Source of the DNA: Candidatus Uhrbacteria bacterium GW2011_GWC2_41_11
Lineage (GTDB): Bacteria > Patescibacteriota > Patescibacteriia > UBA9934 > GWF2-40-263
Assembly (NCBI GenBank): GCA_000996355.1
Contig: LCAH01000004.1
Span: 14,501-78,500 of the forward strand
Length of the DNA: 64,000 nt
Direction: 5' to 3'
Below, piece after piece: positions 374 to 45,706 of the stretch (position 1 is the stretch's first letter; every line of letters begins with the position of its first letter). Made by a program: the position numbers and the translations under genes. The notes below the pieces were generated by a model. The model was not told where the DNA came from. It was given only the letters and a program-made list of their open reading frames with translations, and did no database searches.

Positions 374-866
374 TTTTTTGTTTGAATTCGTTGAATACCG
401 ACCTTGTCTTTTTGCTTTCTATTTGATAGGATGGAGTCAATTTTTAACTTTTTCTATGTCTGTTTTACGTTCTTGGGTTAGTATACAGCCGGCTCCGCTT
501 ACATCAGGATTACTGTTTGGAATGATATTCTTTTTTGTCGTTCTTTTTTTCGGAGGCATCATGGTTCGGGTTCTTGGATCTCGTAAAAATGTGAATCATT
601 ACAACAAAGATATAAAATTTCGTCTCAGCCGTATTTGCATGACCATGGGATTTTTTGGACTTATATTTGTCTTTTTTTCTTACGAACAAGTTCGATTTCT
701 CGGCGCGCGTTTTTGGTATGTCCTCTGGCTTGTTGGAACGTTTGTTTGGGTTGGATTCTTTTCCCATTATCTTCTTCGTGTGATTCCTATGAAACGTGTT
801 GAAGAAGTTGATCGTCAAGAAAAACAAAAATATCTTCCTGGAAGAAAAAAACACAAGAAACATTGA
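348..866 (+). CDS. hypothetical polytopic membrane protein
   Basis: 172-aa ORF with several hydrophobic helices and a Lys-rich C-terminus. Its stop overlaps the yraN start (ATGA). Confidence 0.4.
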   Translation: MLIFLFGRSFLFEFVEYRPCLFAFYLIGWSQFLTFSMSVLRSWVSIQPAPLTSGLLFGMIFFFVVLFFGGIMVRVLGSRKNVNHYNKDIKFRLSRICMTMGFFGLIFVFFSYEQVRFLGARFWYVLWLVGTFVWVGFFSHYLLRVIPMKRVEEVDRQEKQKYLPGRKKHKKH

Positions 867-1252
867 TTCGAAACGAGTTTATGGAGGAAAGACGTCGATT
901 TGGTAATGAAGGGGAAGAAATGGCTGCTGTATATCTTGAACAATTGGGATATGACATTCTTGCTCGCCAATATCGGACAATGGTTGGGGAAATTGATCTT
1001 ATTGCGCGCGATGGTTCTGAAATCGTTTTTGTTGAAGTGAAAACAAGACACGGAACACGATTCGGGTTTCCAGAAGAATCTGTGACTCCCGCAAAATTGC
1101 GAAAGATACAGATGGGAGCTGAATTTTTTTTGGAACAAAAAGGTTGGTATCATTCTCCCATTCGTGTGGATATTCTCGCTATTCTTTTATTATCAGGTCA
1201 TTGTACAGACATTCAACATTTCAAAGGGATTGACGTTTCATCTCTGATTTGA
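863..1252 (+). CDS. yraN: YraN-family (UPF0102) endonuclease
   Basis: The motif GEIDLIA...VFVEVKTR matches YraN/UPF0102. The length of 129 aa is typical of the family. Confidence 0.75.
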   Translation: MIRNEFMEERRRFGNEGEEMAAVYLEQLGYDILARQYRTMVGEIDLIARDGSEIVFVEVKTRHGTRFGFPEESVTPAKLRKIQMGAEFFLEQKGWYHSPIRVDILAILLLSGHCTDIQHFKGIDVSSLI

Positions 1253-1355
1253 AATACTAAAGATATTACAGAACCTGTCGGAAACGACGGGTTTCGTTGT
1301 TTATCGGACTTCCTTATTTTGTATATTTTTTAACTTCACACTCTCACCTCTTTTT

Positions 1356-2603
1356 ATGCCTTCACCTATCGAACAGGCCATGCGACAAATTTGCGAGGAA
1401 AAAGGTCTTTCTATTGAATCTGTTCTTCAAACCATTGAAGCAGCCCTTGCTGCAGCATATCGTAAGGATTTTGGAGAAAAAAATCAGAACATCGAAGTGG
1501 AATTTAATCCGGTAAATGCGGAAATTCGTGTTTTTGATGTAAAGACAGTCGTGGAAGATGTAGACCTTGAAGAGTTAGAACGTCGTCAAGAAGCCAGACG
1601 AGCACGTGCAGAACAGGCAGCACAGGCGTTTACAGAAGCTCGCGAACGTGGAGAACAGATTTCTGCTATGGTTATGGAAGAGGATGAAGAAGAAGAACTG
1701 AAATTCAATCCAAAGACGGACATGATGATTTCAGAAGCTTCTAAAGTAAAAGCAGATGTTGGGCTTGGGGAAATTATTCGAACAGAACTTCCACAACCTG
1801 GGGCATTTGGACGCATGGCAGCTATGACGGCAAAACAAGTGATTACGCAAAAATTGCGCGAAGCAGAACGTGAAATTGTCTTTAGTGAGTTTAAAGAAAA
1901 AGAAGGTGAAGTATTAAACGGAGTTGTTCAACGTCGCGAAGGCCGAATGGTTCTTGTTGATCTTGGACGCATTACTGGTATTTTGCGTCCAGAGGATCAA
2001 ATAGCAAACGAACATTATGTTCCTGGTGAAAAGGTAAAAGTGTTCGTCCGTCAGGTGAGTCTTTCCACTCGTGGACCGGAAATTATCTTGTCTCGTACGG
2101 CTGAGGAACTGGTAAAAAGAATTTTTGAACTGGAAATTCCTGAAATTTCGGATGGGTCTGTTCAGATCAAAGCGATTGCCAGAGAAGCAGGTTCTCGTTC
2201 CAAAGTAGCGGTATCCACAACAGATGAAAATTTGGATCCGATTGGTGCATGTATTGGCCAGCGTGGAACACGTATTCAAACCATTATTGGAGCATTGGGC
2301 GGAGAAAAAATTGATATTATTGAATGGAGTGAAGATCCAGAAAAATTCATTGCTCACGCATTAGCGCCTGCAAAAGCGCAACATGTGGAACTTCGTCCAG
2401 ACCAGCGGCTGGCTGTTGTACAGGTGGATTCGGATCAGCTTTCATTGGCGATTGGAAAAGGCGGACAAAATGTTCGACTTGCTGTCCGGCTCACTGGATG
2501 GAAAATCAATGTAAATGGACAAGAGGTTTCTGAAGAAATCGAAACAGATTCTCTTCTTGAGGAAGTTCCTCAAGAAGAGAAAAAAGAGGAAGAAGCCACC
2601 TAA
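1356..2603 (+). CDS. nusA: transcription termination/antitermination factor NusA
   Basis: N-terminal NusA domain, an S1 domain (GEVLNGVVQRREGRMVLVDLG) and tandem KH domains (GQRGTRIQ, IGKGGQNVRL). Acidic tail. Confidence 0.9.
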   Translation: MPSPIEQAMRQICEEKGLSIESVLQTIEAALAAAYRKDFGEKNQNIEVEFNPVNAEIRVFDVKTVVEDVDLEELERRQEARRARAEQAAQAFTEARERGEQISAMVMEEDEEEELKFNPKTDMMISEASKVKADVGLGEIIRTELPQPGAFGRMAAMTAKQVITQKLREAEREIVFSEFKEKEGEVLNGVVQRREGRMVLVDLGRITGILRPEDQIANEHYVPGEKVKVFVRQVSLSTRGPEIILSRTAEELVKRIFELEIPEISDGSVQIKAIAREAGSRSKVAVSTTDENLDPIGACIGQRGTRIQTIIGALGGEKIDIIEWSEDPEKFIAHALAPAKAQHVELRPDQRLAVVQVDSDQLSLAIGKGGQNVRLAVRLTGWKINVNGQEVSEEIETDSLLEEVPQEEKKEEEAT

Positions 2604-2624
2604 CCATTAGCCTCCGGAATTTTT

Positions 2625-3368
2625 ATGTTTTACGCTGTTTTGTATCAGCCGTTATTCAACCTCCTTATTTGGCTGTACAACATTATTCCGGGAATGGATC
2701 TTGGATTTGCTATTATTGCCATTTCTCTTGTTACAAAATTGGTTTTGTGGCCATTTTCGCATGTCGCTCTTAAATCTCAAAAATCCTTGCAGGAAATCCA
2801 GCCGAAACTTGAGGCTCTGAAGGAACAATTTAAAGATGATAAGGAAGGACTCACAAAAGCCATGATGCAGTTGTATCAAACGGAAAAAGTAAATCCGTTA
2901 TCTTCCTGCCTTCCTTTGCTTATTCAATTGCCTATTCTCTTTGCTCTTTACGCGGTTTTACGCGACGGGTTACGTGTAGACAGTTTGGTTCATTTGTATC
3001 CATTTATTCATAATCCAGGTTCCATCAATCCATTCTTTTTAAACTGGATTGATTTAGGTCAACCACATCTTGTGATGGCAATTGTGGCAGGAATATTGCA
3101 ATTCGTTCAAACAAAAATGCTCATGACTCAACGTCCGCCACGAGCGATTCGTAAAAAGGAGGGAGCCAAAGATGAAGATATGCTCACAGCGATGAACCAG
3201 TCCATGACATATATGATGCCAATTATGACGGTGGTGATAGGAGCATCATTGCCAGGTGGGTTGACGTTATATTGGATTGTCATGAATATTTTTTCCATTG
3301 TTCAGCAATTTTTCGTTTTGAAATCGCACAAAAAATCTGAGATATCTTCTCCTGTGATTTCACAGTAA
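2625..3368 (+). CDS. yidC: membrane protein insertase YidC (short form)
   Basis: Conserved YidC/Oxa1 core (LVTKLVLWPF, QPKLEALKEQFKDDKE, LQLPILFALY). At 247 aa it matches the short Gram-positive/CPR type. Confidence 0.85.
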   Translation: MFYAVLYQPLFNLLIWLYNIIPGMDLGFAIIAISLVTKLVLWPFSHVALKSQKSLQEIQPKLEALKEQFKDDKEGLTKAMMQLYQTEKVNPLSSCLPLLIQLPILFALYAVLRDGLRVDSLVHLYPFIHNPGSINPFFLNWIDLGQPHLVMAIVAGILQFVQTKMLMTQRPPRAIRKKEGAKDEDMLTAMNQSMTYMMPIMTVVIGASLPGGLTLYWIVMNIFSIVQQFFVLKSHKKSEISSPVISQ

Positions 3369-3374
3369 AAAAGT

Positions 3375-4337
3375 ATGGATACTTTGGCAGCAACCTCTCC
3401 CACATCTGAGGAAGCGGCTTTCTATCGTACGATTGCGTGGTTTTGGTTTTTAGATTACCCGCTTACTTTTTTTGAGGTTTGGAAATGGGTGATGAAACCG
3501 CCACATTCATTTTTTCCTGAAGAGGTTCAAAATTTTTTAGAGCAACATTCATGGTTAAGAGATCGACTTGTTGTTGAGGGAGGATTTATAACCCTTCGAC
3601 GTCCTGGTTATTCCCTTGCGGAGCTTGTTATACTTCGTCAACATCGTTTTGTTGATGCAACGAGAAAATTCCGAAAGCTCAATCATTTTTTGTCTTTTTT
3701 TCGTTTGCTTCCTTGGATTCGGATGGTGGCTGCATGCAATTCTTTAGCTTGGTATCAAACGGAACAAACAAGTGATATTGATCTTTTTATTATTGTTCGT
3801 ACAGGAACGCTTTGGCTCACGCGTCTTTTTCTTGTGACTCCATTTGCTCTTCTTGGTCTTCGGCCGAAGCTCTCCACAACAGAAGATAAAATGATTCAAC
3901 AGGATCCATTTTGTTTTAGTTTTTTTCTTGACGAAAAATATCTGTCTCTCGAAAAAATTCAACTTCCTGGGGAAGATCCCTATCTTGCTTCATGGGTATT
4001 ATCCCTTGTTCCTGTGTATGATCCAGATGGACTGTATGATGTATTTTTGAATCAAAATAGTTGGAGTCATGAATTTTTTCCGCATGCAACTGCATCTATT
4101 CACGAAGGTAAGAAAATACAGCGCTCTTTTTTTTCTTTTTTGTTTCGGGTTTCTTTTTTTGAACCTTGGGCAAAGAAGATACAAATGAAACGTTTACCTG
4201 CAGTCATTCGTGAACAAATGAATAAAGATTCTTGTGTGGTTGTTTCAGATCAGATGTTAAAATTTCATAGTAATGATCGACGGGCATTTTATCGGGATCA
4301 ATGGAAAAAACTTTTAAAAGAGGAAGGAATTTCATGA
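3375..4337 (+). CDS. hypothetical protein (possible nucleotidyltransferase-like fold)
   Basis: 320-aa ORF. An SDIDLFIIV-type motif is reminiscent of minimal nucleotidyltransferases. It is translationally coupled to the downstream O-antigen-ligase-like gene. Confidence 0.45.
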   Translation: MDTLAATSPTSEEAAFYRTIAWFWFLDYPLTFFEVWKWVMKPPHSFFPEEVQNFLEQHSWLRDRLVVEGGFITLRRPGYSLAELVILRQHRFVDATRKFRKLNHFLSFFRLLPWIRMVAACNSLAWYQTEQTSDIDLFIIVRTGTLWLTRLFLVTPFALLGLRPKLSTTEDKMIQQDPFCFSFFLDEKYLSLEKIQLPGEDPYLASWVLSLVPVYDPDGLYDVFLNQNSWSHEFFPHATASIHEGKKIQRSFFSFLFRVSFFEPWAKKIQMKRLPAVIREQMNKDSCVVVSDQMLKFHSNDRRAFYRDQWKKLLKEEGIS

Positions 4338-32979: not shown

Positions 32980-35073
32980 ATGCCAATTGAGATTGGACAA
33001 TTAGGAAAAACAACTCCTGCGGCGCCATTGGAACCGCCAAAGGCTCCAAAACCGGCGCAGGAGAAATTAGCCGTTGAACGTATTGCGTTGGAAGAAGAAC
33101 GTATTTATCGTCGTGGAGTTGTGACGGTTCGGGATATTATTTCTCCGGCCTCTTTTGACGTTTCTCCAAATCATCTGATTCTTTCCGGTATATACGTACG
33201 GACATTATTTGTTATTACGTATCCTCGTTACATTGGTCTTGGATGGTCTGCTCCTCTTATCAATTTAAATAAAACATTCGATGTTGCCATGTATTTTTAT
33301 CCGGTGAAGTCGAATGTTATTTTAAAACAGCTTCAAAAACGCGTGGGATATCTTGAGGCTGGAATTATGACCGATGCGGAAAAAGGGAAACCGCGCGATC
33401 CGCTTCGAGAGACAGCGCTTCGTGACATTGAAGAATTGCGCGATGCATTGACCCAAGGCATTGAACATTTTTTTCAATTTGCTTTTTACATCACGATCTA
33501 CGCAAAAAATCAGGAAGAGTTGGAACGATTGACAGGCGATCTCGAAAGCATGTTTGGCAGCAAATTGATTTATACAAAAAAAGGATATTATCAAGCTGAA
33601 CAAGGGTTCAATTCCACCATGCCACTCTGCAATGACGAACTCATGATTACCTACAACATGAACACGTCGCCCATTGCCGCTTCATTCCCTTTTATTTCTT
33701 CGGATCTTACCTCTGATCACGGTATTCTGTATGGAATCAACCGTCATAATAATTCCCTGATTCTTTTTGATCGTTTTAGTTTGCAAAATGCGAATTCCGT
33801 TGTATTTGCCACTTCTGGTGCAGGAAAATCGTATGCCGTGAAACTCGAAATTTTACGAAGTCTCATGATGGGAATTGACGTGATTGTGATTGATCCGGAG
33901 ATGGAATATAAACATCTTTCTGAAGCAGTCGGAGGGACCTATATCAATGTTTCTCTTGCCAGTCAGTCAAAAATCAATCCATTTGATTTGCCGCGTCCAA
34001 AAGGAGAAGAGGTGCGTGTGGAAGATGTCATCCGCAGTGCTATTATTACTCTAAAAGGTCTTCTGCGTATCATGATTGGAAAGCCGCTTGGGGAGGCAGG
34101 AGTAGTTGGATTTACACCAGAAGAAGATTCCATTTTAGATCGAGCGCTTATCGAAGCGTATGCGAAAAAAGATATTACCGCAGATATTGCAACCCTTGTT
34201 GATGTCGAACCTCCAATTCTCAGTGATTTTCAAGATGTTTTGGAAGGAATGGAAGGCGCGGAAGATTTGGTTGCACGTCTTCATAAATATACAGATGGAA
34301 CATTTGCTGGTCTTTTGAATTCTCCCACAACCGTTGAAATGCATAATCAACTTGTGATTTTTTCCGTTCGCGATCTTGAAGATGAATTGCGTCCAATGGC
34401 TATTTATACGATCGTGAACTATATCTGGAATGTGGTGCGCTCTGAACGCAAGAAACGTATTTTGGTGATTGATGAAGCGTGGTGGCTCATGCAGCACGAG
34501 GATTCGGCTAAATTCATTTTTGCGCTTGTGAAACGCTGCCGTAAATATTTTCTTGGGGTCACAACAATCACACAGGATGTGAATGATTTTCTTCGCTCTC
34601 CATACGGTCAGGCTATTGTGACCAACTCATCGATTCAATTATTGTTTAAACAGTCTCCGGCAGGTGTAGATCTTGTTCAAAAAACGTTTAACCTAACAGA
34701 CGGAGAAAAATATTTATTGCTTGAATCTGGGATAGGGGAAGGATTGTTTTTTGCCGGACAGAAGCATGTAGCCATTAAAGTGGTTGCGTCCTATGCAGAA
34801 GATCAAATTGTTACTACGAATCCACAGCAATTATTGGACATTGAAAAAGCACGTAAAGATTTTGAAAAACAGCTTGCCAATCGAGAGGAGCAAGAAGCCC
34901 TTGTCGAGGTTCCGGAGATAGATTTAGAAACACCTTCTGACACAGAACAAGGAGAACAAGAAGCTCTTGCAGTTCAAACGGCAGCAGCGGCAAGTGCGGC
35001 AGCGGAGTTTTTAACAAAAGAGGAACAAGGTCAAGAAGAAGCGGATCGTATTCGTCGAGAGCTGGCTGGATAA
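32980..35073 (+). CDS. VirB4-like type IV secretion ATPase (C-terminal ATPase part)
   Basis: Walker A TSGAGKSY and the VirB4-diagnostic Walker B ILVIDEAWWLM. Acidic C-terminal tail. Confidence 0.8.
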   Translation: MPIEIGQLGKTTPAAPLEPPKAPKPAQEKLAVERIALEEERIYRRGVVTVRDIISPASFDVSPNHLILSGIYVRTLFVITYPRYIGLGWSAPLINLNKTFDVAMYFYPVKSNVILKQLQKRVGYLEAGIMTDAEKGKPRDPLRETALRDIEELRDALTQGIEHFFQFAFYITIYAKNQEELERLTGDLESMFGSKLIYTKKGYYQAEQGFNSTMPLCNDELMITYNMNTSPIAASFPFISSDLTSDHGILYGINRHNNSLILFDRFSLQNANSVVFATSGAGKSYAVKLEILRSLMMGIDVIVIDPEMEYKHLSEAVGGTYINVSLASQSKINPFDLPRPKGEEVRVEDVIRSAIITLKGLLRIMIGKPLGEAGVVGFTPEEDSILDRALIEAYAKKDITADIATLVDVEPPILSDFQDVLEGMEGAEDLVARLHKYTDGTFAGLLNSPTTVEMHNQLVIFSVRDLEDELRPMAIYTIVNYIWNVVRSERKKRILVIDEAWWLMQHEDSAKFIFALVKRCRKYFLGVTTITQDVNDFLRSPYGQAIVTNSSIQLLFKQSPAGVDLVQKTFNLTDGEKYLLLESGIGEGLFFAGQKHVAIKVVASYAEDQIVTTNPQQLLDIEKARKDFEKQLANREEQEALVEVPEIDLETPSDTEQGEQEALAVQTAAAASAAAEFLTKEEQGQEEADRIRRELAG

Positions 35074-35100
35074 CAAGAGAAGTTTTAAACAGATATTTTT

Positions 35101-35679
35101 ATGACACGAAAGAAAAAAATTGTGATTGCACTGGGAGTCATTTTTCTTTTATTACTTCTTTTTTTTCTTTTTTGGTTTTTGTCTAGACAAAAAAAATCCG
35201 CAGCTTCTGTCGTGACTCCTCCTGTTGTTCAAGAACAGATTCCGGTAGCTAAACCTCGAAATACGGAAGAAAAAGCTCTGCCACTTTATCTCAATACAGA
35301 ACAGACTTCTTCAGAAATTTCTTTGCAAAATCTCGCACAGACATTTACGGAACGGTATGGAAGCTATTCCAATGAAAGTGATTTTGCTAACTTATATGAT
35401 GTTCTTGATTTAATGAGTGCAACATTCCGTGCGGAAACGGAACAAACGATTGCAACCGCTCAAGTTCCTGATCATTATTATGGAATTACCACTCATGTTC
35501 TTTCTGTAAAAATGGATTTGATGGATGAAACAGGAGGAACAGCAAAAGCAACTGTGAATACTCAGCGAGAAGAGGCAACGAAAAGTATCCAAAATGTTCA
35601 AGTGCGTTATCAATATCTTTCACTTTTGTTTGTGAAAGAACAGGGTATATGGAAGGTCGACGGAGCTGCTTGGGAATAG
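35101..35679 (+). CDS. bitopic membrane protein (possible VirB8-like component)
   Basis: N-terminal TM anchor KKKIVIALGVIFLLLLLFFLFWFL with a C-terminal globular domain of about 150 aa. The assignment rests on position and size only. Confidence 0.4.
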   Translation: MTRKKKIVIALGVIFLLLLLFFLFWFLSRQKKSAASVVTPPVVQEQIPVAKPRNTEEKALPLYLNTEQTSSEISLQNLAQTFTERYGSYSNESDFANLYDVLDLMSATFRAETEQTIATAQVPDHYYGITTHVLSVKMDLMDETGGTAKATVNTQREEATKSIQNVQVRYQYLSLLFVKEQGIWKVDGAAWE

Positions 35680-36368
35680 TGTGTGACACGATTGCAGATT
35701 GGTTGTTTCCTTGTTTTTGTCTTCAATGCAAGCAAGAAGGAAATACCATGTGTGAGATATGCAAAGAATCGTATACACCAAAACGGACAGGAGATACTTG
35801 TCCGTTTTGTCGTAAAAAATCTTTGGGTTCATTAACATGTGAATCTTGTCGTACTTTGGTTGCTTTGGATAGATGTTTGTCTCTTGGATGGTACCACGAT
35901 TCAGTTCTTCGAGAAGCGATTCGAGCCGCAAAATATACAGATGATCCAGCTCCATGGAAGCTGTTTCCGGAATGGATGCGAAAAATGTCTATAGAAAATA
36001 TTTTTTTCGGAGATACATGGGTTGTTTCTTTTGTTCCGCTTCATGTATCACGTCGGCGAGAGCGAGGCTTTGATCAAGCGGAACGAATTGCTCATTTGGT
36101 TGGAGAGGCAACGAAATTTCCTGTTGTCGATTTATTGGAACGTGCGGAATGGACAGACCCACAAGCACAGCGAGATGCAAGAGAACGTCAAGTTGGAGAT
36201 ATGGATGGTATCTTTCAGGTCATAAAACATCCAATTCCATCTCGGGTTATTTTATGCGACGATGTTTTGACAAGCGGGGCAACCATGGATGCAGCCGCTC
36301 AGATTCTGAAACAAGCCGGGGCAGAACAAGTTTGTGGGTTTGTTCTTGCCCGTCGCGGAGGGGAATAA
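35649..36368 (+). CDS. comFC: competence protein ComFC (phosphoribosyltransferase family)
   Basis: N-terminal 4-Cys zinc finger (CxxC...CxxC) and the PRTase motif VILCDDVLTSGATM. The exact start is uncertain because the ORF overlaps the upstream gene. Confidence 0.75.
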   Translation: MEGRRSCLGIVCDTIADWLFPCFCLQCKQEGNTMCEICKESYTPKRTGDTCPFCRKKSLGSLTCESCRTLVALDRCLSLGWYHDSVLREAIRAAKYTDDPAPWKLFPEWMRKMSIENIFFGDTWVVSFVPLHVSRRRERGFDQAERIAHLVGEATKFPVVDLLERAEWTDPQAQRDARERQVGDMDGIFQVIKHPIPSRVILCDDVLTSGATMDAAAQILKQAGAEQVCGFVLARRGGE

Positions 36369-36417
36369 CCTTTGAGGCTTGCTTCCTTTGCTTGTTTCCG
36401 ATATGCTTTTTGCGCGC

Positions 36418-36438
36418 GGAGAGGTACCCAAGAGGCTG
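36418..36438 (+). repeat. 21-nt direct repeat copy 1 (GGAGAGGTACCCAAGAGGCTG), identical to the 5' end of tRNA-Ser at 36764-36784
   Basis: Exact 21/21 match to tRNA positions 1-21. Downstream sequence lacks anticodon and T arms, so this is not a tRNA. The two copies bracket the GIY-YIG gene. Confidence 0.7.
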
Positions 36439-36498
36439 CGGGTCCGCCGGAGAGAAACGGAGGCGGAAAGGGGCGAGTTTACTTACAGAAAGAATCGT

Positions 36499-36810
36499 AT
36501 GTCTTTGATATATCTTCTGTTTAGTCCAAAAATAAATCGATTTTATATTGGTTCTTCTAGAGAAAATACTGTTGAATCCCGTTTGAAACGTCATAATGAA
36601 GGAAGAGTAAAATCGACAAAGTTTGGAAGTCCTTGGAAAGTTGTCTGCGTTGAACATTTTGAAACGTATACTCAAGCTCGAAAAAGAGAATTGTATTTGA
36701 AAAGTGGTGTTGGAAGAGGAAAAATAGCAAAAGTATTCGGTTATTTGAAAGGTGAAAATATATGGAGAGGTACCCAAGAGGCTGAAGGGGCGGGTTTGCT
36801 AAACCTGTAG
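36499..36810 (+). CDS. GIY-YIG nuclease superfamily protein (YhbQ/YazA-like)
   Basis: The motif IYLLFSPKINRFYIGSSRENTVESRLKRHNEG is a GIY-YIG core. The ORF has no stop before running 47 nt into the tRNA-Ser gene, so its true end is uncertain. Confidence 0.6.
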   Translation: MSLIYLLFSPKINRFYIGSSRENTVESRLKRHNEGRVKSTKFGSPWKVVCVEHFETYTQARKRELYLKSGVGRGKIAKVFGYLKGENIWRGTQEAEGAGLLNL

Positions 36811-36857
36811 GTCGGGGTTTTCCCGGCGCGAGGGTTCGAATCCCTCTCTCTCCGCCA
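36764..36857 (+). tRNA. tRNA-Ser (anticodon GCU)
   Basis: Acceptor stem GGAGAGG/TCTCTCC, 3-bp D stem, anticodon loop TTGCTAA, long variable arm, T loop GGGTTCGAATCCC, encoded CCA. Confidence 0.85.
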
Positions 36858-36868
36858 GGACAATTTTT

Positions 36869-37339
36869 ATGCCTTCAATTGAAACTGGAAAATTAATTTC
36901 GAGCGCCATTATTATTCGTGATGATCGTGCCCTTGTATTTGAAGAAAAAAACGATGTTGGAGAATTAAAATATAATTTGCCGGGTGGTCACATTGAACCG
37001 GGTGAGACTCCTATTGATGCACTGCTTCGCGAAGTACTGGAAGAAACTGGAATGGTATGCGAACCGATGTCATTTTTGCAACTAGTTGTAAACACCTGGG
37101 ATCGAAATCATTCGGTGCTTATGTATTTTTCTGTTCGTGTGGCAGCTGATGCTGTCGTGGTGCTAGAGGAGGGAATAACTGCACAATGGATGACTAATGA
37201 AGACATTGCTGAGCTTCCGGATGATCGGTGTGTGTTTGGTATTAAATCCGCTTTGGCTATGGTTTTAAGAAATGAGGTGCTGCCCTCAACAGCACTTTTG
37301 TTACGCAAGGGTGGTAAACAATTTGAGTGGCAGAAATAA
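36869..37339 (+). CDS. NUDIX hydrolase
   Basis: Nudix box GGHIEPGETPIDALLREVLEETG. Confidence 0.8.
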   Translation: MPSIETGKLISSAIIIRDDRALVFEEKNDVGELKYNLPGGHIEPGETPIDALLREVLEETGMVCEPMSFLQLVVNTWDRNHSVLMYFSVRVAADAVVVLEEGITAQWMTNEDIAELPDDRCVFGIKSALAMVLRNEVLPSTALLLRKGGKQFEWQK

Positions 37340-38112: not shown

Positions 38113-38350
38113 GTAGCCCGCCCGACTTACTTGCCTCAAATTCGCTAATGGACAAACCTTTCAAAACCCCTTCAAAACTTCGCCTAAATTTGGTACTGAA
38201 CTCGAGTGGCCCGCCATATTACCAACTTTGAACCGAAGCAAAATAAGGGTTTTTGGACAATAAAAAGCCGATTTCTTAGAGAAGTCGGTTTTTTGTATTT
38301 TTTTGAATAAGGTACATAATATAATCAATCTATTTTAGTAAAGATAAATT

Positions 38351-38548
38351 ATGTCTACCATCAGTAAAAACATTCGCAAATTAAGAGAACAAAGAGGCAT
38401 CTCGCAAGATAGACTTTCTAAATTGGCAGATATTTCTTTGAATACTATTGCCAAGTTAGAACTCAACGAAAATCAAAATCCCACCATTGAAACTTTGCAA
38501 AAAATCGCAAAGGCTTTAGATGTTAAAGTTGAGGATTTAATAAAATAA
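38351..38548 (+). CDS. XRE-family HTH transcriptional regulator (RM controller-like)
   Basis: 65 aa with a helix-turn-helix (ISQDRLSKLADISLNTIAKLE). It lies 4 nt upstream of hsdM. Confidence 0.8.
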   Translation: MSTISKNIRKLREQRGISQDRLSKLADISLNTIAKLELNENQNPTIETLQKIAKALDVKVEDLIK

Positions 38549-38552
38549 AAAT

Positions 38553-39937
38553 ATGTTTGAACAAGCATTAAAAAATATTGATGATATCTTGCGGGCGGAT
38601 AATGCTGGGAGTGCCCTTGATTATATTGAGCAGACTTCGTGGATTTTGTTTTTGAAATATCTGGATGATTTGGAAAAAGACAAAGAAAAAAGCGCGCGCT
38701 TGGCTGGGAAAAAATACAAATATATTCTATCGCCTGAATTCCGCTGGCAAGTATGGGCATGTCCCAAGACTGCTGACGGAAAAATTGATCATCATAAAGC
38801 GATGGATGGTGACGATTTGAAAGATTTTGTTAATAACAAGCTTTTTCCGTATTTGAAAAAATTTAGAGTTGAAGATTCCAACACTATTGAAAATAAAATT
38901 GGAGAAATTTTTCATGAGCTCAAAAATAAGATTCAGAGTGGGTATTCCTTGCGAAATATTTTGGACATCGTGGATAAACTTCATTTTCAAACTAACGAAG
39001 AAAAACACGAGCTTTCCCATCTCTATGAAAGCAAAATACAAAACATGGGCAATGCTGGTCGTGATGGTGGGCAATATTATACCCCTCGTCCGCTGATTAA
39101 AACGATTGTCAAAGTTGTTGATCCAAATCTTGGCGAAACTATTTATGACGGAGCTTGTGGAAGTGCTGGATTTTTGGTGGAGGCCTTTAATTATTTGACA
39201 GAGCAGCGCGAAAAATTAAGTTCCAAAGAATGGGATGTTTTGCAAACAAAAACTTTCTTTGGCAAAGAAAAAATCACTTTGCCATATATTATCGGTGTGA
39301 TGAATATGATTTTGCATGGCATAGAAACGCCGAATATAAAACATAAAAATACTTTGTCGGAAAACTTGGCGGATATTCAAGAAAAAGACCGTTATGATCT
39401 CGTCATCGCCAATCCGCCTTTCTGTTTTTGCAACATTTCATCAAAATTCTCAAAGCTGGTGGGCGAGCGGGTATTGTTATTAAAAATACTTTTCTTTCCA
39501 ACACCGACAACGCTTCAGTCAGTTTGCGAAAATTGCTTTTGGAAAATTGCAATCTGCACACGGTTTTGGATTTGCCCGGAGGCGCCTTTCAAGGCGCGGG
39601 AGTAAAAACTGTTGTTTTATTTTTTGAAAAAGGCGCGCCAACGAAAAAGGTTTGGTTTTATCAACTTAATCTCACGCGTAATCTCGGCAAGGGTAATCCT
39701 TTAAACGAAAACGATTTGGTGGAATTTGTGGAGTTACAAAAAACTAAGGCGGACAGCACAAATTCATGGTCAATAGATGTGAAAAATGTTGATCAAAATA
39801 CTTTTGATTTATCGGTAAAAAATCCGAATAAAAATGACGAGGTGGTTTTAAGAGAGTCAAAAGAGATTTTGGAGGAGATGAGGAAGTTGGATGGGGAGAA
39901 CGGGGAGATTTTGGATAACATTAAAAAATTATTATGA
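38553..39937 (+). pseudogene. hsdM: Type I RM methyltransferase HsdM, disrupted after motif IV (NPPF) by a frameshift/short deletion
   Basis: The N-terminal HsdM domain and motif I (DGACGSAGFL) read in frame A up to NPPF at 39411-39422. The continuation FLQHFIKILKAGGRAGIVI is in another frame, beginning with TTG at 39428. Only about 3 residues separate NPPF from FLQH, where about 25 are expected. Inserting one T in the T5 tract 39425-39429 restores a single ORF. Confidence 0.7.
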
Positions 39938-40968
39938 AAGCAACACTAAAGCATTCAAAGAATGATATAGATAAAGCTGGAAATGTTCTGGCTGGAATAC
40001 CAGATTTAAAAATCAATCAAGATCAGGCAATTGAAATACTTGAAAACTTTAGATCAGTACACAACCATCCACTTATTGTTTTCAGGATGTCATTAAATAG
40101 GAAGGCAAAAAACATTTCAGGAGATCTTCTAATATCACAAAGATTAAAAAGAGCCCCTTCTATTGTGAATAAATTGAAAATTCAAAAGAACATGTCTTTG
40201 TCTCAGATGCAAGATGTGGGTGGTCTCAGAGCCGTTGTCTCGGACTTACAACAACTATATAAATTACGAGACTCTATAAGAAAGGGAGAAAATCAAATAG
40301 CTTTTAAATCCACCTTTTTGAAAGAAACAGACTATGTAAAGTTTCCAAAAGAAAGTGGCTATCGGAGTATACATTTGATATACAAGTATGATAAAAAAGT
40401 TCCTCTAAATGCACAGTGTCGCATTGAAGTTCAATTAAGAACAAAAATTCACCATGCGTGGGCTACTGCCGTTGAAGTAATCGGCACTTACCTTAGACAA
40501 CCACTTAAACAAAGTTTTGGTGACGCTGAATTACTTGAGTTATTTAAAGAGATTAGCAAAGTTTTTATTTTAATTGAGAATAATGAATTCAATGAAGATT
40601 TATTTAAAACAACTTCAGCGAGAATAAATGTATTAAAATTAAGAGACAAATTACGAGGTTTTTCTATTGTAACGCAAATCTCAGCACAAGAAAGTAAACA
40701 GGAGAAAGGTAAATATTATCTAATTTCCTTAAATTTTAAAGATAAAACCCTTAGTGTGCGAAGATATTCAGAGTCAAAGCTTGATCAAGCAAACAATGAA
40801 TATTCTGAATTAGAAAAGAAATATCTTAATAACAAAAATATAGAGATTGTGTTGGTTTCGGTTGATGACATGGATAATCTTAAAAAACTTTATCCTAACT
40901 ACTTTCTTGATACACAGGAATTTGTCAAGCTATTGGATATAATTGATAATAAAATAAATGAAAACTAA
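39934..40968 (+). CDS. RelA/SpoT-domain nucleotidyltransferase (toxSAS/CapRel-like) embedded in the RM operon
   Basis: Synthetase-domain motifs DVGGLRAVVSDLQQLY and GYRSIHLIY...RIEVQLRTKIHHAWATAVE. A Cys-free C-terminal extension of about 140 aa follows. Its start overlaps the hsdM stop (ATGA). Confidence 0.65.
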   Translation: MKATLKHSKNDIDKAGNVLAGIPDLKINQDQAIEILENFRSVHNHPLIVFRMSLNRKAKNISGDLLISQRLKRAPSIVNKLKIQKNMSLSQMQDVGGLRAVVSDLQQLYKLRDSIRKGENQIAFKSTFLKETDYVKFPKESGYRSIHLIYKYDKKVPLNAQCRIEVQLRTKIHHAWATAVEVIGTYLRQPLKQSFGDAELLELFKEISKVFILIENNEFNEDLFKTTSARINVLKLRDKLRGFSIVTQISAQESKQEKGKYYLISLNFKDKTLSVRRYSESKLDQANNEYSELEKKYLNNKNIEIVLVSVDDMDNLKKLYPNYFLDTQEFVKLLDIIDNKINEN

Positions 40969-42076
40969 CTGGCAAACAAAAAATTTTGAGGATTGTTTAG
41001 ATAAAGTTGTCTATACAAGCAAAATCCAAAGAAAAGATTTTTTGAAATCTGGACTTTTTCCTATTATTTCTCAAGAGTCAGAAGATATAAACGGATATTG
41101 GGATGACAAAAAAGATTTATTCAAATGCAAAAAGCCAGTTGTGATTTTTGGTGATCACACTCAAGTTTTAAAGTATGTGGACTTTGACTTTGTTTTAGGT
41201 GCTGATGGCGTAAAAATATTACAACCAAAAGAAATTTTAGATTCAAGGTTTTTTTACTTCTTTTTACAAAGTGTTGATTTAAAAAGTTTAGGATATGCCA
41301 GACACTATCGTTTATTAAAAGAAATAGATGTTTCGTTTCCGTCTCTCCCCGAACAACACCGCATTGTGAAGATTTTGGATGAGGTTTTTGAGGATACAGC
41401 GAAAGCGAAAGAAAATGCGGAAAAAAATCTCCAAAATGCCAAAGAACTTTTTGAATCATATTTGCAGAGTGTTTTTGCGAATCCGGGCAAGGATTGGGAG
41501 AAAAAAAGATTGGGCGATGTTTACGATGTCCGTGACGGAACGCATGATTCGCCTAAATATCAGAAAGTAGGATATGCTTTGATTACTTCAAAAAATCTCA
41601 AAAGAGATGAATTAGATTATCAAAAAATCAAGTACATCTCAGAAAAGGATTACGATAAAATTAATGAACGAAGCAAAGTGCACAAAGGAGACATCTTGTT
41701 TGCAATGATTGGAACAATCGGCAGTCCTGTTGTGATTAAGACAGAACCAGACTTTGCTATAAAAAATGTTGCTCTATTTAAAATACCAAAAGAACAAAAC
41801 AGCTATTTTCTTAAGTACTTTTTAGATTCAAAATTTGTTATTGATAAAATAATGAGTGAAGCCAAGGGAACAACTCAAAAATTTGTTGGTTTAGGATATT
41901 TAAGAGATTTTAAAATTCAATTACCAAAATTAGACGAACAAAAATCCATCGTCGCCAAACTTGATGCTCTTTCTGCCGAAACCAAAAAGCTAGAAGCGAT
42001 TTATAAGCAAAAGCTGGCGGATTTGGATGAACTGAAAAAATCAGTCTTGAAACGTGCCTTTAATGGGGAATTATAA
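40958..42076 (+). CDS. hsdS: Type I RM specificity subunit HsdS
   Basis: Two target-recognition domains separated by the conserved coiled-coil regions (LPEQHRIVKILDEVF; LDEQKSIVAKLDAL). Confidence 0.85.
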   Translation: MKTNWQTKNFEDCLDKVVYTSKIQRKDFLKSGLFPIISQESEDINGYWDDKKDLFKCKKPVVIFGDHTQVLKYVDFDFVLGADGVKILQPKEILDSRFFYFFLQSVDLKSLGYARHYRLLKEIDVSFPSLPEQHRIVKILDEVFEDTAKAKENAEKNLQNAKELFESYLQSVFANPGKDWEKKRLGDVYDVRDGTHDSPKYQKVGYALITSKNLKRDELDYQKIKYISEKDYDKINERSKVHKGDILFAMIGTIGSPVVIKTEPDFAIKNVALFKIPKEQNSYFLKYFLDSKFVIDKIMSEAKGTTQKFVGLGYLRDFKIQLPKLDEQKSIVAKLDALSAETKKLEAIYKQKLADLDELKKSVLKRAFNGEL

Positions 42077-42153
42077 GTTTGTATATATTGTTTGACTTAA
42101 AAGATACAAACTGGTATACTTTGTATACATTATAAATAAGATAGATACAAGTT

Positions 42154-43308
42154 ATGCCAAAAGTTGAAATAGGGAAGAATATTCAACAAAAAGAAGGCTT
42201 TAAGGCTTTTATTCCCAATTCTTTTCCACCAAAGGCCGGTTTTGATTTTGATCCCAAAATTCTCAAAAAGAACAATGAGGCTACTCGTCTTCTTGGTAAA
42301 TTAGATGGCATTACAAAGCTTCTTCCTGATGCAGATTTTTTCCTGCTTATGTACCTACGAAAAGATGCCACTTCTTCCAGTCAAATTGAAGGAACAAGGG
42401 CAACAATGATTGACGCGATAGAAGCAGAAGTAAAAATTAATGATAATCCTCCAGAAGATGTTGATGACATTTTGCATTATATAAACGCTCTTAATTATGG
42501 AATAAAAAGAATCACGGCAGATAATTTCCCGATGGCATTAAGATTTGTCAGAGAACTTCATGGAAAATTAATGCAAAAAGCGCGAGCAACACATTTTTCT
42601 GATCCTGGAGAATTTCGAAAAAGCCAAAACTGGATAGGCGGCACGCGGCCAGATAATGCTCGTTTTGTTCCTCCGCCAGTAGATGAAATGCACAAAGCCT
42701 TGAATGATTTTGAATTATTCTTTAATAAAGAAGACTCAACTCCCACTGCAATAAAAGCGGGTCTTATCCATGCTCAATTTGAAACGATTCATCCATTTTT
42801 AGACGGTAACGGAAGAACAGGGAGAATGTTAATCATTTTTTATTTATGGAAAGAAGGATTTTTGGAAAAACCGGTCTTATTTCTATCTTCTTATTTTAAA
42901 AAACATCAAAAAATTTACTATGAAAAATTGGCCTCCTATCAAGGTGAAGAGGTAGATGTTTCGGAATGGATAGAATTTTTCTTGGATGGTGTGATTGAGA
43001 TAGCAAATGAAGCAATTGATATTGTAGGTAAAATTACGACCTTGCGTGAGGAAGATATGAGAAAAATTCAAACTTTTGGAAAAAGAGCATCTGAAAGCGC
43101 GATAGTGGTTTTGCCAAAATTATATGGTCAGCCGATTATAAATAATGCCATTGTTCAAAAATGGACTGGATTTACCCGTGCCGGAGCGCAAACTGTCATT
43201 GATCGATTTATCCAGAAAGGAATTCTTACTCCAAAAGATAAAGACAAAAAATATGGTCAATCTTATGTGTATAGAAAATATTTGGATATTTTCATAGATA
43301 AGAATTAA
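42154..43308 (+). CDS. fic: Fic/DOC family protein
   Basis: Fic motif HPFLDGNGRTGRMLI with a C-terminal winged-helix-like tail. It lies between hsdS and hsdR. Confidence 0.85.
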   Translation: MPKVEIGKNIQQKEGFKAFIPNSFPPKAGFDFDPKILKKNNEATRLLGKLDGITKLLPDADFFLLMYLRKDATSSSQIEGTRATMIDAIEAEVKINDNPPEDVDDILHYINALNYGIKRITADNFPMALRFVRELHGKLMQKARATHFSDPGEFRKSQNWIGGTRPDNARFVPPPVDEMHKALNDFELFFNKEDSTPTAIKAGLIHAQFETIHPFLDGNGRTGRMLIIFYLWKEGFLEKPVLFLSSYFKKHQKIYYEKLASYQGEEVDVSEWIEFFLDGVIEIANEAIDIVGKITTLREEDMRKIQTFGKRASESAIVVLPKLYGQPIINNAIVQKWTGFTRAGAQTVIDRFIQKGILTPKDKDKKYGQSYVYRKYLDIFIDKN

Positions 43309-43312
43309 TTTT

Positions 43313-45706
43313 ATGAACGAAGCAGAAACAAGGGCCGAATATATTGATCCAAAACTCAAAGCGAGTGGTTGGGGTGATGTCGAAGGGTCAAAAGTTCTGC
43401 GCGAATTTCGCATTACTGACGGCAAAATCCAAACAGGGGGAACAAGAAGTAAGCCGGAGATTGCCGACTATATTTTGGTATATAAAAATCAAAAGATTGG
43501 CGTGATAGAAGCCAAAGCGGAGAGTTTGTCTGTCACCGAAGGAGTGGTGCAAGCAAAAGCGTATGCCGAAAAATTGCATATTGATTATACATACGCTACC
43601 AACGGCAGAGAGATTTATGCCATATCCATGAAAACCGGCGAGGAAGGCGAGATTGCCGATTTCCCAACCCCTGACGAACTTTGGAACAAAACTTTTGCAG
43701 ACTGGAACGAATGGAAAGAAAAATTTGCGAGTGTCCCAAATGAAGGCGAATATGGCAAACGTTATTATCAAGAAATTGCCATCAATAATGTTTTAAATGC
43801 AGTGGCTGAAGAAAAAGACAGACTACTTTTAACAATGGCGACCGGAACCGGAAAAACCGCCGTGGCTTTTCAAATAGCGTGGAAACTTTTTCAAACTCGC
43901 TGGAATTTGAAACGAGATGGCGCGCGAAGACCGCGAATTTTATTTTTGGCAGATAGAAATATTTTAGCCGATCAAGCGTTCAATGCATTTTCTGCTTTTG
44001 ATAAAGATGCGCTGGTACGAATCAACCCGCTGGATATTCGCAAAAAGGGCGGAGTGCCGATGAGCGGAAGTGTTTATTTTACAATCTTTCAAACTTTTAT
44101 GAGCGGTCCGGACGGAACGCCGTATTTTGGCGATTATCCGGCAGACTTTTTTGACTTTATTATTATTGACGAGTGTCATCGAGGTGGTGCGAACGACGAA
44201 AGCAACTGGCGCGGTATTTTAGATTATTTTTCTCCCGCTGTTCAACTCGGTCTTACTGCCACACCAAGACGACAAGACAATGTGGATACTTACCGATATT
44301 TTGGCAAACCGATTTATACTTATTCGCTCAAAGAGGGCGTAAATGATGGATTTTTGACACCTTTTAAAGTCAAAAGGATTAAAACTACGCTGGACGATTA
44401 TGTTTATACCTCGGACGACCAGATTATTGAGGGTGAAGTAGAAGAAGGCAAAATCTATGAAGAGCCGGATTTCAACAAAATTATTGTTATCAAAGAACGC
44501 GAAGCCAAAAGGGTGCGAATTATTTTGGATGAAATAAATCAAAATGAAAAAACGATCATTTTCTGTGCTACGCAAAATCATGCTTTGGCGGTTCGTGATT
44601 TAGTAAATCAGATGAAAGAAAGCAAAGATCCGAATTATTGCGTCCGAGTAACTGCCAACGATGGCGCGCGCGGAGAACAATTTCTGCGCGAATTTCAGGA
44701 CAATGAAAAAACAATCCCCACTATTTTAACAACTTCGCAAAAACTTTCTACCGGCGTGGACGCGCGAAATATCCGCAATATTGTTTTGATGAGACCGGTT
44801 AATTCTATGATTGAATTTAAGCAGATTATCGGTCGCGGAACGAGGCTTTTTGACGGCAAGGAATATTTTACCATTTATGATTTTGTGGACGCGTATAAAC
44901 ATTTTTCTGATCCAGAATGGGACGGCGAGCCAATAGAGGAAGCCTGCTCAAAATGCGGTCAAAATCCTTGTATTTGCGAAGTAAAACCACCGCGCGTTTG
45001 TAATGTTTGCGGACAAAGCCCTTGTGTATGCGAAAAACCGCCCAAAATATGCCCTGTTTGCGGAAAAGACCCTTGCGAGTGTGAGAATCCACCAAAGAAA
45101 AAACTGAAAATAAAATTGCGTGATGGAAAAGAGCGTGAAATTCAACACATGATTTCGACTTCATTTTATAGCGCGGACGGAAAACCAATTTCGATTCAAG
45201 AGTTTATGGATAATATGTTTGGAGCTATGCCGGAATTTTTCAAGAGCGAAGAAGAACTCCGAAAAATTTGGTCAAATCCAACGACCAGAAAAGCATTTTT
45301 GGATAGTATTGCTGAAAAAGGTTTTGGCAAAGACGAATTGGAAACACTGCAAAAGATGATTGATGCCGAGCAAAGCGATCTTTTTGATGTTTTGACTTAT
45401 GTATCATTTTTAACACAGCCAATCTCAAGAACACAAAGAGTGGAGCAATCAAAAGACAAAATCTTTAAAGGACTAGATGAAAAGCAAAAAGAATTTTTGG
45501 ATTTTGTATTGTCTAAATACGAAGAAAAAGGAGTTGAGGAGCTGGACGAAGAAAAATTACCGGTATTGCTCAATTTGAAATATCACGCAATTGCAAACGC
45601 AGAACAATCGCTTGGAAGCGTAGATAGTATTCGTTCAATATTCTTTGCTTTTCAGAAAAATTTGTATGCAAAAGTAAAAAAAGAATATGTTTATACTCCA
45701 AAATAA
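43313..45706 (+). CDS. hsdR: Type I restriction enzyme R subunit HsdR
   Basis: N-terminal nuclease domain (MNEAETRAEYIDPKL), SF2 helicase motifs (TGTGKT, DECHRG, QxxGRGTR). An unusual C-terminal Cys-repeat insert precedes the C-terminal helical region. Confidence 0.9.
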   Translation: MNEAETRAEYIDPKLKASGWGDVEGSKVLREFRITDGKIQTGGTRSKPEIADYILVYKNQKIGVIEAKAESLSVTEGVVQAKAYAEKLHIDYTYATNGREIYAISMKTGEEGEIADFPTPDELWNKTFADWNEWKEKFASVPNEGEYGKRYYQEIAINNVLNAVAEEKDRLLLTMATGTGKTAVAFQIAWKLFQTRWNLKRDGARRPRILFLADRNILADQAFNAFSAFDKDALVRINPLDIRKKGGVPMSGSVYFTIFQTFMSGPDGTPYFGDYPADFFDFIIIDECHRGGANDESNWRGILDYFSPAVQLGLTATPRRQDNVDTYRYFGKPIYTYSLKEGVNDGFLTPFKVKRIKTTLDDYVYTSDDQIIEGEVEEGKIYEEPDFNKIIVIKEREAKRVRIILDEINQNEKTIIFCATQNHALAVRDLVNQMKESKDPNYCVRVTANDGARGEQFLREFQDNEKTIPTILTTSQKLSTGVDARNIRNIVLMRPVNSMIEFKQIIGRGTRLFDGKEYFTIYDFVDAYKHFSDPEWDGEPIEEACSKCGQNPCICEVKPPRVCNVCGQSPCVCEKPPKICPVCGKDPCECENPPKKKLKIKLRDGKEREIQHMISTSFYSADGKPISIQEFMDNMFGAMPEFFKSEEELRKIWSNPTTRKAFLDSIAEKGFGKDELETLQKMIDAEQSDLFDVLTYVSFLTQPISRTQRVEQSKDKIFKGLDEKQKEFLDFVLSKYEEKGVEELDEEKLPVLLNLKYHAIANAEQSLGSVDSIRSIFFAFQKNLYAKVKKEYVYTPK
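44945..45094 (+). repeat. 3 x 51-nt tandem coding repeat within hsdR (C-x2-C-G-x2-P-C-x-C-E-x2-P-P)
   Basis: The peptide units are CSKCGQNPCICEVKPP, (R)VCNVCGQSPCVCEKPP and (K)ICPVCGKDPCECENPP. The DNA units are about 75% identical to each other. Confidence 0.7.

Follow-up and report, generated by a model that had tools for sequence, protein, structure and literature searches.

Here we analyse a gene cluster of Candidatus Uhrbacteria bacterium GW2011_GWC2_41_11, a bacterium of the Candidate Phyla Radiation (CPR). The cluster lies in a 64,000-nucleotide stretch of contig LCAH01000004.1 (positions 14,501 to 78,500 of the forward strand; assembly GCA_000996355.1), which as a whole is termed the window and whose numbering is used throughout. 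Between positions 38351 and 45706 the window harbours seven open reading frames (ORFs), all on the forward (+) strand, which form a type I restriction-modification (RM) operon with two embedded accessory genes. According to Pfam and PADLOC, the order is XRE regulator, hsdM, a RelA/SpoT-domain gene, hsdS, Fic and hsdR, as an earlier sequence-only reading of the locus had proposed. The operon starts with an XRE/HTH_3 gene (38351-38548; Pfam HTH_3, E 2e-16) coding for a putative, C-protein-like controller of 65 amino acids (aa), and 4 nucleotides (nt) downstream follows hsdM (38553-39937), which is disrupted. The RelA/SpoT-domain gene, a capRel homologue of 344 codons (39934-40968), precedes hsdS (40958-42076), which encodes two target-recognition domains (two Pfam Methylase_S stretches; PADLOC Specificity_I PDLC03062, positions 11-375 of 375). 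The last two genes code for a SoFic-type class II Fic protein of 384 aa (42154-43308; Pfam Fic_N and Fic) and an apparently intact HsdR (43313-45706; Pfam ResIII, Helicase_C and EcoEI_R_C). Since HsdR exceeds the cut-off of the EcoAI/FtnUII family (NCBIfam NF046051; 819 bits against 550, residues 1-785), the RM system is classified as type IB. The GC content is 0.31-0.38 across 38-43 kb and 0.41-0.46 in the surroundings, and a terminator-like hairpin of the upstream gene (38260-38296, + strand; terminator scan) marks the left edge of this low-GC island. The best explanation for these features is a horizontally acquired low-GC type IB (EcoAI-family) RM operon.

The 344-aa protein had been read as a fused toxic small alarmone synthetase (toxSAS) similar to CapRel, an experimentally validated defence protein (PMC9712102; PMC11578894), and this assignment is borne out by several lines of evidence. 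Searching 5.8 billion proteins yielded 4,575 relatives, and in an alignment of 18 sequences conservation extends from end to end, with an invariant block, Y-P-N-Y-F-(L)-D, in the C-terminal part. A family profile matches CapRelSJ46 of Salmonella phage SJ46 (Zhang et al. 2022, PMC9712102; structures 7ZTB and 9ERV) with an E value of 1e-63 over nearly the full length (query 4-337, chain 12-368), and the match to housekeeping small alarmone synthetases (E ~1e-19) is confined to the catalytic core. The AlphaFold2 (AF2) model of the protein (pLDDT 86.9, pTM 0.83) retrieves chain 7ztb_B as its top Foldseek match (E 3.9e-21, TM score 0.66, ~360 columns, 29% identity), with 9ERV also among the best, and RelP and RelQ structures cover the N-terminal half only. 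PADLOC identifies the protein as PDC-S33 (E 4.8e-103, 343 bits; residues 3-337 against profile positions 4-341 of 349), and there is a match to the phage protein family phrog_4773 (E 1e-85). On sequence and predicted fold, the protein is thus assigned to the CapRel family of fused toxSAS toxin-antitoxins.

Domain by domain, the protein resembles its characterized homologue. Both are single polypeptides of ~340-370 aa that share a toxSYNTH domain, three anchor helices, a cysteine-less pseudo-zinc-finger domain (pseudo-ZFD), the YPNY motif and a C-terminal helix; they are 34% identical over 323 aligned residues, and the mapped catalytic and autoinhibition residues are conserved. The toxSYNTH domain (residues 61-190; 40114-40503) was delimited by residue mapping, invariant columns and motif coordinates, and the motifs GYRSIH (142-147), EVQLRT (165-170) and HHAWA (173-177) are present as previously noticed. 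Pfam RelA_SpoT (E 3.8e-17) covers residues 69-179, and since it ends there, the C-terminal extension, which had also been recognized, comprises ~165 rather than ~140 aa. Residues R79, R116, Y155, V338, L339, Y352 and Y355 of the SJ46 protein correspond to R70, R99, Y143, V306, L307, Y320 and Y323, respectively, and in CapRelSJ46 these residues bind ATP or hold the pseudo-ZFD on the active site (Zhang et al., PMC9712102). The adenine-site arginines R70 and R99 and the G-loop residue Y143 are invariant in the 18 homologues, as are Y320 and P321, with N322 and Y323 nearly so; the columns of V306 and L307 likewise show little or no variation in the family. SJ46 residues A341 and A351 are replaced by S309 and L319, and two surface insertions of the SJ46 protein are missing from the window protein.

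The C-terminal half of the AF2 model contains helices within residues 198-246, strands at 248-252, 261-267, 272-278 and 303-309, and a helix at 280-296. The strands 261-267, 272-278 and 303-309 correspond to the published three-stranded sheet, and the predicted topology fits the plan described for CapRelSJ46, in which three anchor helices are combined with a sheet of three strands and its connecting helix, a short YPNY helix and a terminal helix (PMC9712102). By this comparison, the putative pseudo-zinc-finger sensor/antitoxin domain extends over residues 247-310 (40672-40863); the sole cysteine of the protein, C162, lies outside this domain. The YXXY motif Y320-P-N-Y323 (40891-40902) is equivalent to Y352-P-N-Y355 of the SJ46 protein, from which its autoinhibitory function is taken (PMC9712102). 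The gene is under strong purifying selection: the ratio of nonsynonymous to synonymous substitution rates (dN/dS) is 0.054 in comparison with the 91%-identical homologue of metagenome locus L176, the only pair in which dS is not saturated.

The Fic protein had been regarded as a defence-type Fic, and PADLOC supports this view with a SoFic match (E 2e-106; residues 15-380 against profile positions 5-358 of 361), as do the SoFic chains in the Protein Data Bank (E ~1e-22). Its catalytic motif HPFLDGNGRTGR (residues 213-224) and the inhibitory SSQIEG (75-80, including E79) are both intact. SoFic-type proteins have a C-terminal winged-helix-like domain. The SoFic protein of Shewanella oneidensis and Sofic of E. 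coli share with the window protein the sequence of Fic_N, Fic core and C-terminal domain as well as the HPFxDGNGRxGR and SxxxEG motifs. In E. coli a small AS1 antitoxin is reported downstream of Sofic, whereas in the window no such ORF is found and hsdR starts 4 nt after the Fic gene. Sofic is a toxic AMPylase that causes abortive infection and has EF-Tu as a target (PMC12249575; 10.64898/2026.07.09.737422).

The hsdM gene, earlier taken as one gene, is in fact split into two ORFs (38553-39605 and 39428-39937) in different frames, which are covered by positions 2-283 and 309-489, respectively, of the PADLOC MTase_I profile PDLC03021. Protein and DNA alignments to related loci reveal that 21 codons plus 1 nt are missing right after motif IV, and the difference in BLAST offsets defines a deletion of exactly 64 bp. 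The 5' part is in frame up to the junction (39414-39422, + strand), continues with 59 out-of-frame codons and stops at 39605. An NPPF motif at 39411-39422 is a chimera, because the deletion junction falls there, and the ORF that ends in the ATGA shared with capRel is, owing to the same deletion, only the 3' fragment of the disrupted gene. In the intact allele (L084, positions 3133-3205) two CCGCCTTTC direct repeats lie 64 bp apart, and the window retains a single copy at the junction.

Both alleles are found in contigs from the same aquifer as the window, each encoding an identical 344-aa protein. An intact hsdM of 482 codons is present in L084 and L085, and the gene is split in L081 (100% identical to the window), L082, L083, L087 and L088, such that the deleted allele, with 5 of the 7 listed contigs covering the region, is the commoner of the two in the assemblies. 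The intact and the deleted allele agree in capRel, Fic, hsdS and hsdR, each of which is full length and shows 100% identity. The deletion is therefore recent and uninformative on the embedded genes. Contig L083 (GCA_000994285.1) carries the hsdM deletion and, in addition, lacks 104 bp of the 5' half of hsdS (window ~41126-41229), which suggests a stepwise decay of the RM genes with capRel and fic unchanged. Type I restriction requires the M2S core, and the window has no intact HsdM for methylation and restriction because of the frameshift; the RM function of this allele is therefore most likely lost. The intact abortive infection (Abi) effectors left in this strain would then most likely be CapRel and Fic only.

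The position of capRel between hsdM and hsdS recurs in other genomes. We surveyed 80 loci from one-genome-per-species GTDB genomes, which span many bacterial phyla and several archaeal lineages, together with 80 metagenome loci and 80 viral contigs. An hsdM or hsdS gene directly adjoins capRel in 5 of 79-80 GTDB loci (the Patescibacteria loci L001, L003, L004 and L005, plus L077), in 7 of 80 metagenome loci (the distant L223 and six that share 65% identity or more) and in none of the viral contigs. All six of these closely related metagenome loci (L176-L180 and L182) have hsdM upstream of capRel. For relatives less than ~50% identical, an hsdM or hsdS neighbour was seen in about 2-3 of ~150 loci from genomes and metagenomes. 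The arrangement hsdM-capRel(-x)-hsdS was found in the window and in L001, L003/L182, L004, L005/L180, L091/L178, L092, L095, L176, L177 and L179, and it typifies a CPR-centred subclade (~11 of the 14 distinct loci that are 60% or more identical), not the whole family. The suspected co-occurrence of the RelA/SpoT-type gene with hsd genes is thus far above chance, but only within this one subclade.

Targeted look-ups revealed the gene orders hsdM-capRel-206-aa ORF-hsdS-Fic-61-aa ORF-hsdR in L091, hsdM-capRel-156-aa ORF-hsdS-HTH-small Fic-hsdR in L092, and hsdM-capRel-hsdS in L095. The ATGA overlap of hsdM and capRel, which the sequence-only reading had pointed out and which lies at 39934-37 in the window, is kept in all eight related CPR loci examined; owing to this conservation, it is not due to chance. 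On the other side, capRel and hsdS share 11 nt, hsdS starting within the 3' end of capRel. Six loci including the window have an overlap of the form ATGnnnnnTAA between capRel and the following gene, which is hsdS in five of them and the ORF of unknown nature in L091. Solo members of the close clade are located beside dnaK (L002) or beside DUF2726, transposase or recombinase genes (L093 and L094).

Fic-domain genes occur in or beside the operon in five of the eight loci in which the operon is largely visible. They belong to different subfamilies, and the Fic proteins of the window and L091 are only 26% identical. In L003 the gap between hsdS and hsdR is occupied by an AAA_14/DUF4143 ATPase gene and a gene for a RhuM-Fic protein. 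The gap thus acts as a slot for variable cargo, which often consists of Fic-family genes. Outside the close clade no conserved partner or defence-island signal emerged among the 150 immediate neighbours of the 80 genome loci upon analysis with Pfam and PADLOC (ORFs of at least 70 aa; the 65-aa XRE gene was sought separately by tblastn). The only recurring neighbours were the hsd genes of the 4-5 CPR loci and L077, and the others included PIN, transposase, resolvase and housekeeping genes. Distant relatives of capRel are almost always solo and many are prophage-borne, which supports the autonomy of the protein; 126 IMG/VR contigs encode relatives with 31-40% identity.

Taken together, we consider it probable that the locus represents a type IB RM operon which carries two autonomous, self-inhibited Abi effectors, CapRel and Fic. 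The biochemical steps proposed for these proteins are modelled on their homologues. The toxSYNTH domain of CapRel would use ATP to pyrophosphorylate the 3'-CCA ends of tRNAs and thereby stop translation. In the off-state, the C-terminal pseudo-ZFD would inhibit the enzyme in cis, with the YPNY motif plugging the ATP site, and the toxin would be released upon binding of a phage protein to the pseudo-ZFD, as the capsid protein does in the characterized homologue. Fic would be kept inactive by its own inhibitory helix (E79) until a cue relieves the inhibition, and would then AMPylate a translation factor, for which EF-Tu is the candidate by homology. Because of the start/stop overlaps on both sides, capRel is likely transcribed and inherited together with the genes for the methylase and the specificity subunit, and is probably also translationally coupled to them. 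Restriction and the effectors would be linked genetically rather than mechanistically, such that co-expression and co-transfer of restriction and Abi genes result in layered immunity. A layered defence can reasonably be inferred.

A number of observations weigh against this view. The sensor domain evolves slowly: in comparison with L176, its dN is 0.047 vs 0.051 for the catalytic domain, with similar values in other close-clade pairs. Overall divergence confounds the comparison of domain conservation between the close set and the distant one, and the slow sensor in the close clade is only suggestive; it leaves room for a conserved and perhaps endogenous trigger. Moreover, sequence does not distinguish between tRNA modification and (pp)pApp synthesis, and a gene that was only a passenger would not usually overlap so closely with both hsdM and hsdS. 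The case for coupling and for promoters is weak: capRel is not preceded by a visible Shine-Dalgarno sequence, and in a promoter scan the promoter-like matches in the region were not above shuffled expectation. Finally, Fic scores 122.8 bits against a cut-off of 550 for the NCBIfam SoFic equivalog NF046030, and it is hence assigned to the broad SoFic family, not as an orthologue of S. oneidensis SoFic by the NCBI criterion.

The main rival to the autonomous Abi effectors is a dependence of CapRel on the RM complex. PrrC of the EcoprrI locus is an anticodon nuclease that is embedded in an hsd locus and silenced by the RM complex. In analogy, CapRel might be wired to the restriction complex as a guard, masked by HsdM/HsdS or sensing phage anti-restriction proteins, and would fire on tRNA once restriction is disabled. 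Like PrrC, the window protein would be a tRNA-inactivating suicide enzyme inside a type I RM operon, and the embedded position with its two-sided overlaps recurs across CPR classes. Furthermore, the pseudo-ZFD is the least conserved region of published CapRels, whereas in the window subclade the sensor is no more variable than the enzyme domain, and hypervariability of the sensor is accordingly not seen in the close clade. Yet PrrC is an unrelated ABC-ATPase-nuclease fusion, located between hsdS and hsdR and almost exclusively RM-embedded, while CapRel has its own antitoxin domain and occurs mostly outside RM loci. The wider family does not show the near-exclusive hsd linkage of such a guard, and solo members of the close clade sit beside dnaK or transposase genes. 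The window protein has also kept its full kit for autoinhibition in cis (the YXXY motif and the V306/L307 interface). The commoner, hsdM-deleted allele retains an intact capRel, an argument of less weight because capRel may be silenced as well when the coupling is lost. Overall, we consider a PrrC-like guard unlikely.

A related proposal, to which we likewise give little credence, holds that CapRel was domesticated in a CPR-centred lineage and now makes up a fourth, integral component of the type I system, tied in translation to hsdM on one side and hsdS on the other. Its sensor, under purifying selection equal to that on the enzyme domain, would monitor a conserved cue rather than a fast-evolving capsid. 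In that case CapRel might respond to the condition of the M2S complex or to an anti-restriction protein of a phage, and it would be a functional counterpart of PrrC without being homologous to it, with the CCA end of tRNA as its target.

Less likely still is a wholly dead relic, i.e., an island that is non-functional including its embedded genes and heading for loss. The frameshifting hsdM deletion in five of the seven listed contigs and the extra 104-bp hsdS deletion in L083 are in line with decay, and capRel, which has no visible ribosome-binding site of its own, may lose expression once the coupling to hsdM is broken. However, capRel, Fic, hsdS and hsdR have remained full length and identical in both alleles, purifying selection on capRel appears to be strong across the clade, and Fic and hsdR have their own promoter-like element, which makes this explanation improbable. 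Also less likely, and in our view very improbable, is a housekeeping role, in which the protein would serve a reduced CPR genome as a small alarmone synthetase producing (p)ppGpp and would lie in the hsd operon by coincidence: the RelA/SpoT active site is complete and a 79%-identical homologue adjoins dnaK, but the NCBIfam scores lie far below the cut-offs (52.6 bits vs 320 for YjbM and 29.8 vs 499 for RelA/SpoT), the CapRel homology extends over the full length including the antitoxin domain, the distribution is patchy across domains of life with heterogeneous neighbours and no conserved synteny outside the CPR subclade, and relatives are found in the 126 viral contigs and a phage protein family.

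The window capRel lies in a CPR type I RM operon, whereas CapRelSJ46 is encoded in a prophage. PDC-S33, the PADLOC model that matches the window protein end to end, is an unvalidated and unnamed candidate, and its equivalence to CapRel is shown only for the window protein. PDC models including this one originate from a guilt-by-embedding study (10.1101/2024.01.29.577857), and PDC-S33 was not found by name in our literature search. Among the closest known systems is the RptR-HsdM-HsdS-DarTG2-HsdR island of enteropathogenic Escherichia coli (EPEC; PMC12255303). Like the window operon, this type I RM island begins with a gene for a small HTH protein, a repressor in this case, and the site between hsdS and hsdR is described there as a hotspot (PMC12255303). 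The slot is occupied by the DarTG2 toxin-antitoxin, which ADP-ribosylates DNA, in the EPEC island and by Fic in the window, and hsdM and hsdS are immediate neighbours in the EPEC island.

The claim that the combination of genes is undescribed holds true only in a narrow sense, as CapRel, SoFic and the embedding of Abi or toxin-antitoxin genes (PrrC, DarTG2 and guilt-by-embedding) have been described already. Our literature search retrieved no paper on capRel between hsdM and hsdS or in Patescibacteria, which does not prove that none exists. Mildly new are the lineage-specific operon layout and the natural polymorphism with a decaying RM host. The stable, lineage-wide hsdM-capRel-hsdS layout differs from the usual cargo slot between hsdS and hsdR, and CapRel and SoFic-type Fic proteins are extended to CPR bacteria. 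To our knowledge, very little has been established experimentally on the phage defence of these episymbionts with their tiny genomes. Intact and deleted methylase alleles beside unchanged Abi genes represent a ready-made field test as to whether such effectors depend on, outlive or compensate for RM. The locus leaves current concepts unchanged and provides a well-supported annotation and a useful example.

Several further observations concern the loci related to capRel. The extra DNA between capRel and hsdS extends over 8031-8651 in L091, 1875-2345 in L092, 2952-3500 in L176 and 4445-6044 in L177. The 206-aa and 156-aa ORFs of L091 and L092 are mutually unrelated and have no Pfam match, and the stretches of ~0.5 kb in L176 and ~1.6 kb in L177 were seen only as gaps; this variability suggests a second cargo slot inside the operon. 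The 61-aa ORF between Fic and hsdR in L091 (11145-11330) encodes a zinc-ribbon protein that matches Lar_restr_allev below the cut-off (E 9e-5) and recalls the small AS1 antitoxin of E. coli Sofic. In L223 (926-4073) a capRel relative with 36% identity lies directly downstream of the gene for a 694-aa HsdM-like methylase, and the order in L077 is hsdR-hsdS-capRel-DUF4357-...-hsdM; both loci hint at independent captures by RM loci outside CPR. A DUF2726 gene resides directly beside the solo capRel in the unrelated Omnitrophica and KSB1 genomes of L093 (3957-4466) and L094 (6287-6787), respectively, and could represent either a recurring partner or another defence gene.

The XRE protein of the window matches the PADLOC models HTH_VI, capH and Control_protein with E values from 1e-13 to 6e-9. 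By tblastn, its sole homologue among the loci examined (59% identity) was detected in L093 (313-504) in front of a split N6_N4 methylase gene, and none was present in the other CPR hsd-capRel loci. In L093 the XRE homologue is followed, within 561-3721, by the split methylase gene, a Y1 transposase gene and the solo capRel homologue, an arrangement consistent with a role of the XRE protein as an RM controller and with mobility of capRel. Residues 545-590 of HsdR (44945-45082) comprise three tandem CxxCGxxPCxC motifs between the helicase and the EcoEI_R_C domain, which may form zinc ribbons, and the HsdR protein of L001 has two or three copies. The 77-nt spacer between hsdS and Fic (42077-42153) contains a weak promoter-like element, TTGACT-17-TATACT with an extended -10 element (42092-42120, + strand), flanked by the inverted repeat GTTTGTAT/ATACAAAC and two palindromic GTATAC sites, which may serve as an operator.

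No integrase flanking the RM island was seen in the window. The upstream region (32980-37339) harbours genes for type IV secretion system-like components (PrgI, a TraC-like protein and a VirB4/TraG-type ATPase) as well as ComF-like, GIY-YIG and NUDIX genes, and a tRNA-Ser(GCT) gene is located at 36764-36857. The identical 344-aa protein is also annotated in Candidatus Uhrbacteria bacterium GW2011_GWA2_41_10, as found in the protein search. In the intergenic region downstream of hsdR, at ~45951, there is a 20-bp indel, with the 20 extra bases present in L084, L085 and L086.

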